DNA of 64,000 bases from Escherichia coli. Its GTDB lineage: Bacteria; Pseudomonadota; Gammaproteobacteria; Enterobacterales; Enterobacteriaceae. The notes under the pieces are model-generated. The model was given only the letters and a program-made list of their open reading frames with translations, had not been told where the DNA came from and did no database searches. The stretch lies in assembly GCF_003018255.1 (NCBI RefSeq), contig NZ_CP027440.1, one strand, 5' to 3'. Numbering within the stretch: the first letter of the stretch is position 1; every line of letters starts with the position of its first letter. This document shows positions 45,544-52,863 of this stretch, in pieces. Position numbers and translations under genes: made by a program.

Positions 45544-46611
45544 ATGTTTGTGAAGCTCTTACGTTCCGTTGCGATTGGATTAATTGTCGGCGCTATTCTG
45601 CTGGTTGCCATGCCTTCGCTGCGCAGCCTTAACCCGCTTTCCACTCCGCAATTTGACAGTACCGATGAGACGCCTGCCAGCTATAATCTGGCGGTTCGCC
45701 GCGCCGCGCCAGCGGTGGTTAACGTTTACAACCGTGGTTTGAACACCAACTCTCACAACCAGCTTGAGATCCGCACCCTGGGATCCGGTGTAATCATGGA
45801 TCAACGCGGTTATATCATCACCAATAAACACGTCATCAACGACGCCGATCAGATCATCGTCGCCTTACAGGATGGACGTGTTTTTGAAGCGTTACTGGTT
45901 GGCTCTGACTCTCTAACCGATCTGGCGGTGCTGAAAATTAACGCCACAGGCGGTTTACCAACGATTCCGATCAATCCACGCCGCGTACCGCACATTGGCG
46001 ATGTGGTTCTGGCGATCGGTAACCCGTACAACCTCGGGCAGACCATTACCCAGGGGATTATCAGTGCCACGGGTCGAATCGGTCTGAACCCGACCGGGCG
46101 GCAAAACTTCCTGCAAACCGATGCTTCCATTAACCACGGTAACTCTGGCGGCGCGCTGGTGAACTCGCTGGGCGAACTGATGGGCATTAACACGCTGTCG
46201 TTTGATAAGAGTAACGATGGCGAAACGCCGGAAGGTATCGGCTTTGCGATTCCTTTCCAGTTAGCGACCAAAATTATGGATAAACTGATCCGTGATGGCC
46301 GTGTGATCCGTGGCTACATTGGCATTGGTGGACGTGAGATCGCCCCATTACATGCGCAGAGTGGCGGCATGGATCAACTGCAAGGGATCGTGGTTAACGA
46401 AGTGTCGCCTGATGGCCCAGCGGCAAATGCAGGCATCCAGGTCAACGATCTGATTATCTCTGTGAATAACAAACCCGCTATTTCCGCCCTGGAGACAATG
46501 GATCAGGTCGCGGAAATTCGCCCTGGTTCGGTGATCCCGGTTGTCGTGATGCGTGACGATAAACAGTTAACATTGCAGGTCACCATTCAGGAATATCCGG
46601 CGACCAACTAA
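45544..46611 (+). CDS. degS: Envelope-stress serine endoprotease DegS
   Basis: 355 aa; N-terminal membrane anchor, GNSGGALVN, one PDZ domain. Confidence 0.93.
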   Translation: MFVKLLRSVAIGLIVGAILLVAMPSLRSLNPLSTPQFDSTDETPASYNLAVRRAAPAVVNVYNRGLNTNSHNQLEIRTLGSGVIMDQRGYIITNKHVINDADQIIVALQDGRVFEALLVGSDSLTDLAVLKINATGGLPTIPINPRRVPHIGDVVLAIGNPYNLGQTITQGIISATGRIGLNPTGRQNFLQTDASINHGNSGGALVNSLGELMGINTLSFDKSNDGETPEGIGFAIPFQLATKIMDKLIRDGRVIRGYIGIGGREIAPLHAQSGGMDQLQGIVVNEVSPDGPAANAGIQVNDLIISVNNKPAISALETMDQVAEIRPGSVIPVVVMRDDKQLTLQVTIQEYPATN

Positions 46612-46673: not shown

Positions 46674-47687
<1,014 letters not shown>

Positions 47688-47984
47688 TTACAATGACCAC
47701 ATCTCAAGAATGTGTAGTCACGCAAGTTTAGCGTTTATGCATTTAATTGCCGTAATCAGGAACCTAACTTACGTAATTAACAGTCGCTTATGCATTAGCG
47801 CAACATTCCAACAGGTGGTGACAATATACCCTACCGTTCAGCCAAAACAACATCAATTTGATAACAATTAATTTACTTTTAAGCAGAATTTGCATGCCGT
47901 GACGCAGGCATGTTTCTCAATAACGAAATTTGATAAAATCCCGCTCTTTCATAACATTATTTCAGCCTTCTTCAGGGCTGACTG

Positions 47985-48023
47985 TTTGCATAAAAATTCA
48001 TCTGTATGCACAATAATGTTGTA
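47985..48023 (+). promoter_or_regulatory. Tandem ARG boxes (ArgR autoregulatory operator) upstream of argR
   Basis: TTTGCATAAAAATTCATC followed 3 bp later by a second imperfect box TGTATGCACAATAATGTTGTAT; resembles the TGAAT-N4-ATTCA ARG-box consensus; ends 24 bp upstream of the argR ATG. Confidence 0.6.
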
Positions 48024-48043
48024 TCAACCACCATATCGGGTGA

Positions 48044-48517
<474 letters not shown>

Positions 48518-48882
48518 TCTCTGCCCCGTCGCTTCTGGCGGCGGGGAAAATGTTGCTTTTCCCTCTCACCCCCCCTGCTTTCTCCTGCGATTAATTTAAC
48601 GAATAGTGCGTTTTATCGCGACATATCATTCACATAATGAATACATGGGTTAAAAAAAGCACATTATGCAAAATTCATTATCTAATTGAAAAGAATAGAA
48701 TTAATAATAAATAATCGTGTTTTTAATTCTTTTTTGTTATTAAAACTCACATTTTTAACACTTAGTATCAACTGAAACAGTTAGCGTGGTATTAATTAGT
48801 TCAATAATTAGTGTATACTTGATTTTGTGATATGGGTCACGAAACAAAGGCCCAGCTAAAAGATTATGTCGAGGTAAAAATC

Positions 48883-49146
48883 ATGAAAATCAAAACCACT
48901 GTTACTGCATTAAGCGTACTTTCTGTTCTCTCTTTCGGTGCATTCGCTGCCGACTCCATTGATGCTGCACAAGCACAAAATCGTGAAGCAATCGGGACCG
49001 TATCCGTAAGTGGTGTGGCGTCTTCGCCAATGGATATGCGTGAAATGCTGAACAAAAAAGCGGAAGAGAAAGGCGCAACGGCCTACCAGATTACTGAAGC
49101 TCGTAGCGGTGACACCTGGCACGCTACGGCTGAACTGTACAAATAA
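48883..49146 (+). CDS. yhcN: Small periplasmic stress-induced protein YhcN (DUF1471/YdgH-BhsA family)
   Basis: True start MKIKTTVTALSVLSVLSFGAFA (signal peptide; Shine-Dalgarno GAGGT; ATG at 48883), 87 aa. Confidence 0.88.
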   Translation: MKIKTTVTALSVLSVLSFGAFAADSIDAAQAQNREAIGTVSVSGVASSPMDMREMLNKKAEEKGATAYQITEARSGDTWHATAELYK

Positions 49147-49173
49147 ACCCTCATCGTCTTGTCCGACGATATT

Positions 49174-49197
49174 GCCCCCGGTTCGGGGGCTTTTTTT
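49174..49197 (+). terminator. Intrinsic terminator after yhcN
   Basis: GCCCCCGGTTCGGGGGC followed by TTTTTTT. Confidence 0.8.
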
Positions 49198-49200
49198 GCG

Positions 49201-49473
49201 CTAATGACGAACATTAAAACGCAAATGCCCTTCCAGCTCTTCCTCTGCCTCATCAAACAGCAATATTAACGCGCCAAAACGGCGACGCGTTTTCTCTCCC
49301 AGATGAACAAATTCAATCTCAAGTGGTAGCGGCAGGACATCGTTCATTAACACATCCCATAGTGAGTCGAGATCGCGTACCTTATCTTTCGCCAGACCAA
49401 AGGCTTGGCTGAAGTCGCGATAAAAATCCTCCTGACTCTCAATCTCATCAAAATCAAAGGTATAAATATTCAT
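49201..49473 (-). CDS. yhcO: Barstar-like (barnase inhibitor family) protein YhcO
   Basis: 90 aa, [47 protein letters not shown]...; acidic, barstar-family pattern. Confidence 0.85.
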
Positions 49474-49533
49474 CTGTTGCCACCGTCACGTTTCACGGCG
49501 AGTTCTGCCGTTCATCGCTAAGTATAGCCATGA

Positions 49534-49561
49534 AAAAACCGACGCTTCGGGCGTCGGTTTT
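49534..49561 (-). terminator. Intrinsic terminator after aaeB (end of the aaeXAB operon)
   Basis: AAAAAACCGACGCTTCGGGCGTCGGTTTT: hairpin with U-tract when read on the minus strand. Confidence 0.75.
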
Positions 49562-49564
49562 GAC

Positions 49565-51532
49565 TTAACTATCGGTCAACGCATGTTGATACTTATGGAG
49601 CATCCCCGCCAGCCGATGAACCGGTTCCGTCACCTGCGGTGGCGCTTGCCAGATGCGTAGCTTTTCCTGGTAGATTTCAAGTTCTTCCAGCAACTGGCCA
49701 AAGTACCGACGACGTTTATCATCGCTACGGGCAGATATCACATGGTCTGCTGTGCGGCGCATTTGTCGGTGAAACGCCGATAAATCCTCGTTAACCGGGA
49801 TCGGCGCATCACGCAGGCGCTGGTGCGCGATAATCATCGTCAGCGCCAGGCGAAATTTCGGCAAATCCCCTGGGAACTTATTCATCAGCAAAAACAGCTG
49901 CTGATAAAGTGCCGGGAGGTGATTCTCTTTACGACGTGCCACATTGGTAGTCATCGCGGAAACAGCGGCAGAAACAAACTGATTAAGCAGTACACGTCCA
50001 GTCCTGTCGCGCGATTTATCCCGCACCAGCAAAATAACGGTGAACGCGAGCACACAGCCGACGATTTGCCCTAATGCGCTGTCGAGAAACTGACTGAAAT
50101 GGAAAGTCATCGGGTTATCCAGCACGATAATATTTATGGTGCTGGCCAGCGCCCCCATCGAGCCCAGTCGCCGTTTCTGTACTTCTATACCGAGGAAAAA
50201 TCCCAGCACTGCCAGGCTAATACACAGCAATAACATGCTTTGTTGGGTATTAGGGATAATCACCAAAAAGTAGAGCAGCCCTAACGGCAGCGCCGCCAGC
50301 GTCCCATAGATAAAGTCGATCGCCACCATGCGTGGATTCGGCAAACGCATTGCCAGTGACGTCACGACCGCAATCATCACCATTGCACCACTGCCGGAAG
50401 TCCAGCCCGTCCACAGCCAGAAAAGCGTCCCCAGAATGCAGGAAAGTGTGGTTCGCCAGAAGTTAACCATCGCATGATGACGTTCGGCTGACTCTACTTT
50501 GACTTCCGGTTCGCCTTGCAGGATCTCTTCTTCAGTAGCGTTGATTTTTGTGTTACTGATAACGCCGCGCTTGAGAAGCTGATAACGCGTTGCCGCCGCG
50601 ACCCAGCTATAAATGGTGACAGGCGTTTCCCGTTCCCCGGTCCAGGCGATAACTCTCCGCAGGCGTTTGAGCTGCTTGTGGACGTCCTGCGCGGTTTCTA
50701 CCGGCGTGTCAAAAAATTCGCGGAAAGTATCAGTGATCAATTCCGGGCGCGTATTCTGAATAAGATAAGTTTCGCAGGATTGGGTAATCAGCGTCAGCGA
50801 TAGCGTATTGATCGCTTTTAAACGTCGATTGGCCCGCGCCCAGCGGGAAGATTCCATATTCAGGTTGCTGCGCATACCTTGTAACGCCGTGGTGCGTCGC
50901 ACCAGATCGCCCCAGGCTTTATCGACAACTTCACCATCGCCATGTTTGATACAGAGTTGCATTAATTGATATTGCGCGACCAGCAAACTTTCCAGCTCTC
51001 GATCCACTTCTTGTTTGATCGATCGCGGAGAAAAGAGCAAATCCGCCATAATCGCACACACAATACCGATAACGATCTCGCTACAACGTTCGACGGCAAA
51101 CTGCGGCGTAAGCAATGGTTCCGGCTGAATGGTGATCACAATGATCAGCGCGGTATAACCGGCCAGCCCCCACGCATACGAGTTTTCTATTCGTACCAGC
51201 GAGGATATCCAGGTACAAAAACCGGCCCAGATACAGCACACCAGAATCATCAATAATGGTGCGCGGATCATCGCAATGATGATTACCAGTCCAGCAATAC
51301 AGCCAATAAATGTGCCGATGATGCGCAAAAAGCCACGATAGCGAATAGCGCCAGAATACGGTTCACCTCCCGCAGCAAAGGCCGGACCGGCGGCAACAAT
51401 CGCCGCTGTCAGTACCGCCCAGCGTGGCGTTTCCAGCTGGAAGTGAAAGCCAACAAACAGCGCCAGTACAATGGCGGTCGCCAGTTTTACCGCAAAGCGA
51501 ATATGTTGATTAGCAATGGAGAAAATACCCAT
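49565..51532 (-). CDS. aaeB: p-Hydroxybenzoic acid efflux pump subunit AaeB
   Basis: 655 aa multi-pass membrane protein, [46 protein letters not shown]... Confidence 0.93.
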
Positions 51533-52681: not shown

Positions 52682-52863
52682 GTTGACCTTGGTTGTATAG
52701 AGAGAGCAGGCGTTATTATTTTCAGCATCTGTCGCCGCAGAGAAGGGCATGGAAAGCCGGGCGAGAGCAACATTGCTGTAGATTGATATTTAATATATTA
52801 GCGTAACTGTTATGCTGTTATCTATATTATGTGATCTAAATCACTTTTAAGTCAGAGTGAATA

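Follow-up and report, generated by a model that had tools for sequence, protein, structure and literature searches.

The argR-yhcN spacer of Escherichia coli probably combines the end of the argR transcript with a conserved yhcN control region

Position, Composition, and Coding Content of the Spacer

The 64-kb stretch of DNA analyzed here (the window) carries argR (48047-48517) and yhcN (48883-49146) on its plus strand, with the same annotation in K-12 and in strain JNE23-011, which is 100% identical. Between the two genes lies an intergenic spacer of 365 bp (364 bp in K-12), the features of which are collected in Table 1. A previous sequence-only reading had delimited this region exactly, and its description of the spacer as long for the window and strongly AT-rich is borne out: the spacer ranks fifth in length among the 52 intergenic spacers of the window (median 66 bp), its GC content is 34.0% against 52.1% for the window, and its core (48590-48839) has 24.8% GC, the minimum of all 250-bp stretches in the 64 kb. 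The AT-rich runs quoted in that reading were found at 48703-48717 and 48720-48750. No plausible open reading frame with a Shine-Dalgarno sequence had been seen in the spacer, and none was recovered here, as the sole plus-strand start codon preceded by such a sequence is that of yhcN itself; one minus-strand start with a Shine-Dalgarno-like sequence, a GTG at 48569, reads antisense across the argR hairpin. A repeat finder run on the spacer returned just short AT-rich pairs that may be due to chance.

Table 1. Features of the argR-yhcN spacer, with positions in the window.
Feature	Position	Strand	Basis
Whole argR-yhcN spacer	48518-48882		365 bp, 34% GC; ORF list and RefSeq annotation
argR 3' hairpin, 10-bp GC-rich stem and 3-nt loop	48524-48546	+	Predicted fold
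C-rich, G-poor tract after the argR hairpin	48551-48590	+	Base counts; skew in 49 species
Marbox-type site A, GCACTATTCGTTAAA on the minus strand	48595-48609	-	Consensus match; conservation
Conserved palindrome CATTCAC-N3/4-(G)TGAATR	48627-48644		40-species alignment
Marbox-type site B, GCACATTATGCAAAA (GCACAAAAAATCAAA in most genera)	48659-48673	+	Conservation
Distal sigma-70-like promoter, TTGAAA-18-AATAAT (AATAAC in K-12)	48686-48715	+	Consensus scan
Four helically phased A/T tracts, TTTTTAATTC TTTTTTGTTATTAAAA CTCACATTTTT	48720-48757		Tract centers; shuffles
Core yhcN promoter P1: -35 TTAATT (48792-48797), 16-bp spacer, -10 TATACT (48814-48819)	48792-48819	+	Conservation; orthologue data
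CRP site TGTGATATGGGTCACG, center ~+7.5 relative to the inferred start	48826-48841		Published binding; conservation
yhcN 5' leader (~56 nt), Shine-Dalgarno GAGG 48871-48874	48827-48882	+	Shine-Dalgarno scan; Term-seq

Conservation Among Species and Within E. coli

The spacer is found in 5425 of 5426 complete E. coli genomes. The argR-yhcN synteny is common to the 49 enterobacterial species compared, with a spacer of 346-390 bp in most of them, and the gene order argR-yhcN-yhcO, the spacer length, and many sequence blocks are kept in Escherichia, Salmonella, Citrobacter, Enterobacter, Klebsiella, Buttiauxella, Cedecea, Pantoea, and others. In Yersinia, argR likewise adjoins yhcN, according to a study of that genus (PMC13033631). 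Conservation of individual blocks was assessed by motif counts over the 49 species and in an alignment of 40 species, and variation in E. coli was assessed over nine haplotypes. The conserved layout comprises the argR 3' hairpin, the C-rich tract, two marboxes around a palindrome, the A/T tracts, the core promoter, the CRP site, and the leader. The blocks have a fixed sequence, include palindromes, and lack covariation, which is the behavior of DNA sites.

The conservation of synteny, spacer, and blocks across Enterobacterales indicates that yhcN is ancestral rather than foreign, and the control region itself is ancient and syntenic, with no horizontal acquisition, a point that seems to be new. 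Among the nine E. coli haplotypes, the variable positions lie outside every conserved block; the linker positions are unusually polymorphic and the binding blocks invariant, which also seems to be a new observation.

The 3' End of argR

In every species examined, a strong GC hairpin follows the argR stop codon, its sequence differing and its structure kept, and a compensatory pair change (C48532/G48538 to T/A in K-12) is seen in the stem. A primary RNA 3' end mapped by Term-seq at K-12 position 3385206 (PMC7815308 supplement) corresponds to 48550 in the window, 4 nt past the hairpin and 33 nt past the stop codon. With respect to intrinsic termination, the GC-rich hairpin is present and the U-rich tract is not: in E. 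coli the hairpin is followed by the tail AAAAUGUUGCUUUUCC, ending in AAAA, and the terminator scan makes no call there. Some other genera possess a U tract after the argR hairpin.

The sequence beyond the hairpin is rich in C and poor in G. Positions 48548-48607 contain 19 C versus 7 G, which is within the top 1% of the 60-nt tiles of the window, and over the 49 species the mean (C-G)/(C+G) of the post-hairpin tract is 0.41 (>0.3 in 40/49) versus 0.04 for the rest of the spacer. Judging by its composition, this tract may be a Rho-loading or insulator element; a published Rho-termination table has no entry for argR or yhcN.

The yhcN Promoter, Start Site, and Leader

The core promoter of yhcN, P1, has the hexamers and spacing (16-18 bp) of a sigma-70 promoter, and orthologue starts lie at the matching position. 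Its -10 element TATACT is found in 47 of the 49 species and its -35 element TTAATT in 41, with fixed spacing. For Salmonella, the orthologous TTAATT...GATACT is marked in a published promoter figure (PMC10268841 Fig. S1), and for Yersinia the study cited above reports transcript mapping with a yhcN leader of 56-57 nt (PMC13033631), corresponding to +1 at 48826/48827. By the retention rule of the Term-seq table, E. coli should have a mapped start somewhere inside the spacer. From the Salmonella and Yersinia data, the promoter geometry, and this retention rule, we infer that yhcN transcription starts at approximately G48827.

The best consensus match of the region (10/12) is, however, the distal sigma-70-like promoter, and Shimada et al. 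assigned their RpoD SELEX peak at yhcN to this sequence, calling it the 'constitutive' promoter of the gene, and not to P1 (PMC3946193). Were it the main yhcN promoter, transcription would start near 48722, the leader would be ~160 nt long with CRP acting as a roadblock, and marbox site B would be of class I type, as its center lies ~56 bp upstream of that start, which by geometry is a plausible class I distance. Yet the distal -10 element lacks conservation across genera, ~10 extra bp being present there in others; it is polymorphic within E. coli at 48713 and 48715; and in K-12 it reads AATAAC, without the key final T. Orthologue mapping, moreover, leads to a start at P1, the elements of which are near-invariant. 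We therefore consider it improbable that the distal sequence is the main promoter, and P1 is taken as the core yhcN promoter below.

The inferred start is overlapped by a CRP site. Footprint-seq recovered ttCGTGAcccataTCACAaaa, centered on K-12 position 3385490, with a Kd of 1.2 nM and yhcN as the assigned gene (PMC12871828), and yhcN is included among CRP SELEX targets (PMC3105977). The site differs from TGTGA-N6-TCACA by one mismatch here and by at most one in 46 of the 49 species, and its variation in E. coli is confined to the N6 spacer (48833 and 48836). By themselves, CRP pattern matches are not above chance in the 64 kb, nor are matches to the marbox pattern considered below, so the support for these sites comes from their conservation and from published binding data. 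The center of the CRP site is not at an activating position (-41.5, -61.5, etc.); its location over the start suggests repression.

A Term-seq 'orphan' 3' end at K-12 position 3385522 (LB, OD 2.0, as assigned by table position; PMC7815308 supplement) corresponds to 48867, 16 nt before the yhcN ATG. This RNA end is that of a yhcN leader fragment, not of an independent gene. When the leader was folded as a consensus of 40 species, the sole conserved structure was a 5-bp hairpin formed by the CRP palindrome. The leader motif ACGAAACAA is common to yhcN and its paralog ybiJ.

A/T Tracts, H-NS, and Stress Expression

The sequence-only reading had pointed to phased A/T tracts in the spacer. This stands for four consecutive tracts with centers at 48722, 48732, 48743, and 48753 (spacing 10, 11, and 10) and for the core, where the phasing power exceeds that of 98.5% of dinucleotide-preserving shuffles (p ~0.015), but less so for the spacer as a whole, which exceeds just 88% (p ~0.12). 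Within these tracts, TTTTTAAT and TTAT(A/T)AAAA are kept in nearly all genera. Judged by its sequence, the block is likely to be intrinsically curved and could serve as a nucleation site for H-NS. Part of it, TTTTGTTATTAAAA (48732-48745), resembles the 3' part of the GAD box; GadE was rejected as its ligand, given that genera not known to carry GadE have kept the block as well.

H-NS was found at the spacer in the ChIP-chip data of Oshima and of Grainger, and was not detected there in the ChIP-seq data of Kahramanoglou (PMC3661553); SELEX has also placed an RpoD-holoenzyme peak and an H-NS site in the spacer (PMC3946193). The expression of yhcN rises ~500-fold (log2 ~9) at pH 4.4 (PMC10746267), and a reporter placed behind the cloned non-coding DNA upstream of the yhcN ORF is inducible, with the removal of 108 bp from the cloned promoter giving no better reporter performance (PMC6699081). 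In Yersinia, SlyA is reported to bind the yhcN promoter in vitro (PMC13033631). The earlier suggestions that yhcN is stress-induced and that the spacer is an H-NS-bound stress promoter thus agree with published data, namely the acid induction, the reporter activity, and H-NS binding by ChIP-chip (Oshima, Grainger) and SELEX. Searches of the available literature returned no hns-mutant expression data for yhcN, nor any account of its de-repression in such a mutant.

The spacer has also been listed among 78 "promoter islands" of K-12 (U00096.2 position 3383263, length 333), the listing carrying one 'foreign gene' prediction (PMC3661553). As an island in the original sense, it would be heterochromatin-like, H-NS-bound, crowded with non-productive promoters, and linked to an acquired gene. 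In addition to the listing, H-NS binding, and the 'foreign gene' prediction, this is consistent with the location of the lowest-GC stretch of the window inside the spacer, with sigma-70-like sites on both strands, and with a TANNNT count of 13 versus 7.0 +/- 3.7, approximately twice the window mean and in the top 7% of tiles. However, the yhcN promoter is productive, as its ~500-fold induction attests, and a consensus scan, which differs from the original PlatProm criterion, finds just two promoter-like sites in the spacer. The link to horizontally acquired genes is also lacking: synteny, spacer length, blocks, and overall architecture are kept in ~49 species across genera, which argues that the gene is ancestral. 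An island in the original sense is accordingly quite unlikely.

The Distal Marboxes and Palindrome

Further upstream, two marbox-type sites flank a conserved palindrome. Site A is the sole zero-mismatch match to the marbox core GCACNNWNNRYYAAA in the 64 kb; it is kept (<=1 mismatch) in 33 of the 49 species, at the same position in nearly all, and is invariant among the nine E. coli haplotypes. It aligns with Salmonella GCATGATTTGCCAAA, the motif reported under a Salmonella SoxS ChIP-seq peak at yhcN (PMC10268841). Site B has one mismatch to the marbox consensus here, at most two to the core in 49/49 species, and none in 30; its distance to the core promoter is fixed among species, and its GCACA and AAA have a conservation score of 9 of 9, with no variation in E. 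coli. Relative to the inferred start, site B is centered ~161 bp upstream and site A ~225 bp upstream. Binding of MarA, SoxS, or Rob at E. coli yhcN was not found in the literature.

The palindrome is present as TTCA-N5-TGAA at a fixed offset in many genera, and its only variable position in E. coli is the central spacer base 48635. Its sequence is conserved without covariation, which suggests a protein site and not an RNA stem. As ATTCA and TGAAT resemble ARG-box halves, ArgR was considered as the ligand and rejected by inspection: the order and spacing of the halves are wrong (ATTCA-N5-TGAAT here versus ATTCA-N7-TGAAT at the junction of two ARG boxes), and the outer halves are unconserved.

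Sites A and B face inward around the palindrome (48595-48673); this "dyad symmetry" is one of motif positions, not of arm identity, and the repeat finder reported no A/B inverted repeat. We know of no description of inward-facing marboxes around a palindrome for the mar/sox/rob regulon. A tentative idea, which we regard as rather doubtful, is that these 79 bp, with marboxes roughly concentric with CATTCAC-N3/4-GTGAATG and kept at a constant position, ~150-235 bp upstream of the start, across dozens of genera, might constitute an undescribed remote stress-sensing module. With a dimeric factor on the palindrome, such a module would bring about the ~500-fold switch of yhcN by displacing or remodeling an H-NS filament instead of by contacting RNA polymerase. 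If so, the unusual within-species variability of the linkers between invariant blocks would reflect selection on the spacing and flexibility of a nucleoprotein switch.

Small RNA and Small Protein Readings

It had been suggested from the sequence that the spacer could hide a small RNA, or that an sRNA could be derived from the argR 3' UTR, i.e., either an independent sRNA gene or an Hfq-type sRNA ending at the argR hairpin. The stable hairpin with a mapped 3' end just past argR, the short RNA 3' end within the yhcN leader at 48867, and the sRNA ZbiJ encoded downstream of the paralog ybiJ could all be read in this way. However, an Rfam search at permissive E-values (47600-49600) gave only noise in the spacer (CRISPR-DR6, at 20 bits versus a threshold of 39, and SNORD63), the terminator scan found no terminator-like site inside the spacer, and its interior folds no better than shuffled sequence (z +0.2 and +0.9 for the two strands). 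The argR transcript ends in AAAA and not in a U tail, just 33 nt past the stop codon, and the conserved blocks act as DNA sites, with fixed sequence, palindromes, and no covariation. In addition, the plus-strand Term-seq 3' ends in the spacer are those of argR and of the leader only, which speaks against the independent transcript that had been envisaged, and the literature searched links no sRNA to argR-yhcN. Either form of sRNA is thus very improbable, and the idea can be dropped for this spacer. An unannotated small protein gene has next to no likelihood, as short ORFs are present (e.g., 25 aa from the ATG at 48637) but no ORF start has a Shine-Dalgarno-like sequence at a proper distance, the conservation has no codon-like pattern, and the RefSeq and K-12 annotations are empty here.

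A Model for the argR-yhcN Spacer

We consider it probable (approximately 0.8) that the spacer is made up of two functional units of an ordinary kind, one finishing the argR transcript and the other comprising the yhcN control region, core promoter, and leader. In the first ~70 bp, the conserved GC hairpin marks the argR RNA end at 48550, and the C-rich, G-poor tract probably helps to stop or insulate argR read-through, possibly involving Rho. The remaining ~290 bp would provide the upstream control of yhcN, the TTAATT-16-TATACT promoter, the start at ~48827, and the 56-nt leader.

In unstressed cells, the yhcN promoter would be kept nearly silent in two likely ways. H-NS, the binding of which is published, would silence the promoter from the AT-rich, likely curved upstream DNA, and cAMP-CRP, for which binding to the nanomolar site is likewise published, may act as a repressor by virtue of its position over the start. 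Stress input probably arrives via the distal blocks, the marboxes and palindrome ~150-235 bp upstream of the start. As the marboxes are too distant for class I or class II contact with RNA polymerase, the stress input would most likely act by counter-silencing H-NS or through the weaker distal promoter.

Most of the content of the spacer has already been published, the region being catalogued as the promoter of a known stress gene; the observation is genuine but unremarkable. Among E. coli genes, yhcN is one of the most strongly acid-induced, and the block map has value in showing which bases could be mutated. The promoter already serves as a biosensor part, and knowledge of its functional blocks should be useful for engineering. 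The spacer is also a counter-example to the equation of "promoter islands" with foreign DNA, being ancestral and block-conserved across Enterobacterales.

Comparison With Known Systems

The argR end resembles mRNA 3' ends defined by a hairpin, whether by non-canonical intrinsic termination or by Rho followed by trimming to the hairpin, in having a conserved hairpin, an RNA 3' end 4 nt further on, and a C-rich tract beyond; it differs in that E. coli argR lacks a U tract and that published data call no Rho-dependent region there.

With the mar/sox/rob regulon, the yhcN control region shares two sites that match the marbox core, one of them orthologous to the motif under the Salmonella SoxS ChIP-seq peak, and the induction of yhcN together with soxS. 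In contrast to class I and class II promoters, in which the marbox lies within ~40-70 bp of the start and has a class-specific orientation, its sites are far beyond these positions relative to the inferred start, and a class I/II distance is obtained only relative to the non-conserved distal promoter. The authors of the Salmonella study placed yhcN among 'other promoters' (PMC10268841).

Like the promoter islands of Shavkunov, Panyukov, and Ozoline and other H-NS-bound AT-rich spacers, the argR-yhcN spacer is AT-rich, binds both H-NS and RNA polymerase, and shows little basal output; its four A/T tracts spaced 10-11 bp apart may be a further likeness. Unlike the islands, it has no tie to acquired DNA, a dozen of its blocks are conserved, and it has one well-defined, strongly inducible promoter.

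CRP-repressed promoters offer a further parallel. In cyaA P2, which is repressed by CRP, the CRP site lies over the start point; yhcN likewise has a near-consensus nanomolar site, which covers +1 to +15 if transcription begins at the inferred start. An equivalent CRP site is present at the paralog ybiJ, which suggests that this is a family-wide feature and not a one-off.

Identity and published context of the argR–yhcN spacer

We interpret the argR–yhcN spacer as about 70 bp that end and insulate argR, followed by the control region of yhcN (probability about 0.8 for this overall identity, lower for the individual steps). The window is E. coli chromosome, and the spacer is 100% identical to that of strain JNE23-011, and 5425 of the 5426 complete genomes of this species carry a copy. 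RefSeq annotation of JNE23-011 and K-12 reads degS, mdh, argR, yhcN, yhcO, aaeB around it, and the limits of the spacer are exact because argR is annotated to end at 48517 and yhcN to start at 48883. The sequence-only reading had called it long, strongly AT-rich and free of any ORF with a Shine-Dalgarno sequence, and this description is confirmed: the spacer ranks 5th in length among 52 intergenic spacers (median 66 bp), has 34% GC (52% for the window), carries the quoted A/T runs at 48703–48717 and 48720–48750, and has one SD-like start codon, that of yhcN itself, bar an implausible antisense GTG at 48569. Its core (48590–48839; 24.8% GC) is the minimum among 250-bp stretches of the 64 kb. 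Phasing of the A/T tracts held locally, with phasing power in the core above 98.5% of dinucleotide shuffles, but reached only 88% over the whole spacer.

The spacer is already known as an H-NS-bound promoter region. "argR(+)/yhcN(+)" is one of 78 E. coli promoter islands (promoter-dense regions bound by RNA polymerase and H-NS) of Panyukov and Ozoline, with H-NS scored in the Oshima and Grainger sets but not in Kahramanoglou, and with the adjoining gene called foreign by one of three methods (PMC3661553). Shimada et al. located a SELEX peak of RpoD holoenzyme within the spacer, together with a SELEX site for H-NS, and give the yhcN promoter as TTGAAA-18-AATAAC (PMC3946193). CRP SELEX targets include yhcN (PMC3105977), and a 2026 Footprint-seq preprint gives a CRP site ttCGTGAcccataTCACAaaa centred at K-12 3385490 (estimated Kd 1.2 nM; PMC12871828), which reads TGTGATATGGGTCACG in the window. 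yhcN mRNA rises by a log2 of about 9 at pH 4.4 (PMC10746267), microbiota metabolites co-induce yhcN, soxS and bhsA (PMC10038027), and a GFP sensor that responds to acrylate is driven by the cloned non-coding DNA ahead of the yhcN ORF (PMC6699081). Existing literature thus supports the earlier promoter/H-NS reading, with silencing as its putative consequence.

Features of the argR–yhcN region in window coordinates
Feature	Position	Strand	Basis or remark
argR	48047–48517	+	RefSeq annotation of JNE23-011 and K-12
argR–yhcN spacer	48518–48882		365 bp; 364 bp in K-12
argR 3′ hairpin	48524–48546		10-bp GC stem; predicted fold
Marbox A, GCACTATTCGTTAAA	48595–48609	-	Sole perfect match within the whole window
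Palindrome, CATTCAC-N3/4-(G)TGAATR	48627–48644		Between marboxes A and B
Marbox B, GCACATTATGCAAAA (GCACAAAAAATCAAA in most genera)	48659–48673		Motif scoring, 49 species
Phased A/T tracts (4)	Centres 48722, 48732, 48743, 48753		Spacing 10, 11, 10 bp
P1 -35, TTAATT	48792–48797	+	16 bp upstream of -10; in 41/49 species
P1 -10, TATACT	48814–48819	+	In 47/49 species (motif scoring)
CRP site	48826–48841		Starts 6 nt past -10; ≤1 mismatch in 46/49 species
yhcN	48883–49146	+	RefSeq annotation of JNE23-011 and K-12

The argR 3′ end

Term-seq by Adams et al. places the primary argR 3′ end at K-12 3385206 (PMC7815308 supplement), corresponding to window 48550, 4 nt past the hairpin. The hairpin is functional, because its stem shows a compensatory double change between window and K-12 (C48532/G48538 to T/A) and all of the >20 species examined have a strong GC hairpin after the argR stop, though its sequence differs. 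The E. coli hairpin leads into AAAAUGUUGCUUUUCC, which is no U tract, and was not called by the terminator scan. The tract downstream is C-rich and G-poor (19 C versus 7 G in 60 nt, top 1% of window tiles), with a mean C/G skew of 0.41 across 49 species versus 0.04 for the remaining spacer; its composition would fit Rho loading and subsequent trimming back to the hairpin. This Rho step is conjectural, since the published Rho table has an entry for neither argR nor yhcN (PMC7815308 supplement). The initial ~70 bp of the spacer would serve termination and insulation of argR.

The sequence-only reading had also allowed for a small RNA hidden in the spacer or derived from the argR 3′ UTR, which was not borne out and is highly improbable: the spacer has no Rfam match, no internal terminator by scan and no folding signal (z-scores +0.2 and +0.9), the argR 3′ end lacks a U tail, the conserved blocks behave like DNA sites, and no sRNA is tied to this spacer in the searchable literature. 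The Klebsiella "yhcN.3UTR" sRNA concerns a 3′ UTR and not this spacer.

Term-seq also records a minus-strand 3′ end inside argR (K-12 3385042, window 48386; PMC7815308 supplement) with about 23,750 reads, versus about 1,630 at argR's own 3′ end; antisense RNA over the 3′ half of argR is therefore abundant. The consensus scan found a minus-strand sigma-70-like site, TTTTCA-18-CATAAT, within the spacer at 48692–48663. Convergent yhcN and yhcO share one GC hairpin (49174–49190, in the region 49147–49200), whose T-run is confined to the plus strand; the minus-strand yhcO 3′ end lies about 6–7 nt beyond the hairpin, antisense to the yhcN 3′ end (PMC7815308 supplement).

The yhcN promoter and CRP site

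In Salmonella, TTAATT...GATACT are marked as yhcN promoter elements upstream of a mapped start (PMC10268841 Fig. S1), and transcript mapping in Yersinia gives a yhcN leader of 56–57 nt (PMC13033631). Transferred to E. coli, these data would place +1 at about G48827, 8 nt past the TATACT of the core promoter P1. Term-seq reports a second plus-strand 3′ end in the spacer (K-12 3385522; PMC7815308 supplement), at window 48867, 16 nt upstream of the yhcN ATG, which we assigned to the LB OD 2.0 tab by its position in the table. The authors retained such ends only with a mapped transcription start upstream, >20 nt away, and an E. coli start within the spacer is therefore implied.

The consensus scan recovered a distal promoter, TTGAAA-18-AATAAT (48686–48715), at the same site as that of Shimada et al.; the allele at 48715 makes its -10 AATAAT in the window versus AATAAC in K-12. 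This -10 is not conserved, and the sequence of other genera is about 10 bp longer at this point. We rank the distal promoter, from such comparisons, as a probable minor or Escherichia-specific start.

The CRP core is centred near +7.5 relative to the inferred start, which suggests occlusion, not activation. Paralog ybiJ (K-12 837000–839000) carries CGTGATACTCATCACA, a CRP site of nanomolar affinity, and after it a ACGAAACAA motif as in yhcN, at nearly the same distance from the ATG as in yhcN (window 48826–48848), and the bhsA region is likewise a CRP SELEX target (PMC3105977); duplication of the yhcN/ybiJ gene seems to have included its promoter and leader. The window's second near-consensus CRP site, TGTGATCTAAATCACT (52830–52845), lies in the aaeX/aaeR divergent spacer, a published CRP SELEX target (PMC3105977) and H-NS/RpoD site (PMC3946193).

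Conservation across species and variation within E. coli

A YhcN search with one genome per species gave 51 loci; argR lies directly upstream in 49, with yhcO also detected in 45, and the spacer measures 346–390 bp in most loci. In Yersinia, argR is likewise upstream, and the candidate promoter region is 389 bp (PMC13033631). Conserved blocks were read from 40 aligned spacers and from motif scores in 49. Marbox B differs from GCACNNWNNRYYAAA by ≤2 mismatches in 49/49 species (perfect in 30), and marbox A has ≤1 mismatch in 33/49, its position nearly always identical. The Salmonella site A, GCATGATTTGCCAAA, is the exact motif under a published SoxS ChIP-seq peak at yhcN (PMC10268841). By arithmetic on motif positions, the A–B midpoint and the palindrome centre agree to within 1 bp in E. 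coli and most genera; in Salmonella, with its 10-bp deletion, they lie 4 bp apart. The phased tracts fall on two A/T-tract blocks of the alignment, TTTTTAATTC and TTAT(A/T)AAAA. The promoter island here is thus ancestral and block-conserved, not foreign DNA.

The spacer stands out as a local polymorphism hot spot within E. coli: only 33.3% of 5,425 genomes are ≥99% identical to K-12 (25% fall to 90–95%), versus 98.2% for the mdh–argR spacer, 80.7% for argR and 86.0% for yhcN. The window differs from K-12 at 22/365 positions in the spacer, 3/471 in argR and 1/264 in yhcN. Among nine haplotypes, variable sites sit between conserved blocks, with no variation in either marbox, the CRP half-sites, the -10 or the palindrome arms; diversity values from this sample are biased upward because strains were chosen by spacer divergence, whereas the genome-wide identity bands do not carry this bias. 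Recombination and rapid, perhaps near-neutral change in the linkers suffice to explain the polymorphism.

Window alleles unlike K-12 at functional-looking bases are 48715 (distal -10) and 48532/48538 (argR hairpin pair). degS (45544–46611) is only 93.8% identical to K-12, with mdh, argR and yhcN >99% and the mdh–argR spacer 100%; the stretch looks like a recombination mosaic in which the degS allele is divergent. Strain Z247 (NZ_CP021207.1) carries ISApl1 (IS30-family) in the spacer at window ~48738 (locus L056, 3219–4436), within the phased A/T-tract block; the insertion comes between the core promoter of yhcN and the distal marbox/palindrome module, and is thus a natural test of that module.

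A proposed yhcN switch

Beyond its first ~70 bp, the spacer would act as a yhcN switch. H-NS, seated on the AT-rich and probably curved DNA upstream, and CRP, covering the start, would hold basal output very low, and stress regulators on the conserved remote blocks would relieve this state; candidates are SoxS, MarA or Rob at the marboxes and a dimer at the palindrome, with factors of the SlyA or PhoP type, reported in Yersinia, as further candidates. Published data show binding by H-NS, RNA polymerase and CRP, and by SoxS in Salmonella; silencing, the direction of CRP action and counter-silencing are what we infer. That the marbox–palindrome–marbox element is an undescribed counter-silencing module is a tentative and rather doubtful proposal. 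The marbox centres lie about 161 (B) and 225 (A) bp upstream of the inferred start, outside the geometry of the class I and class II promoters of the mar/sox/rob system, and yhcN accordingly stands among the "other promoters" of the Salmonella authors (PMC10268841).
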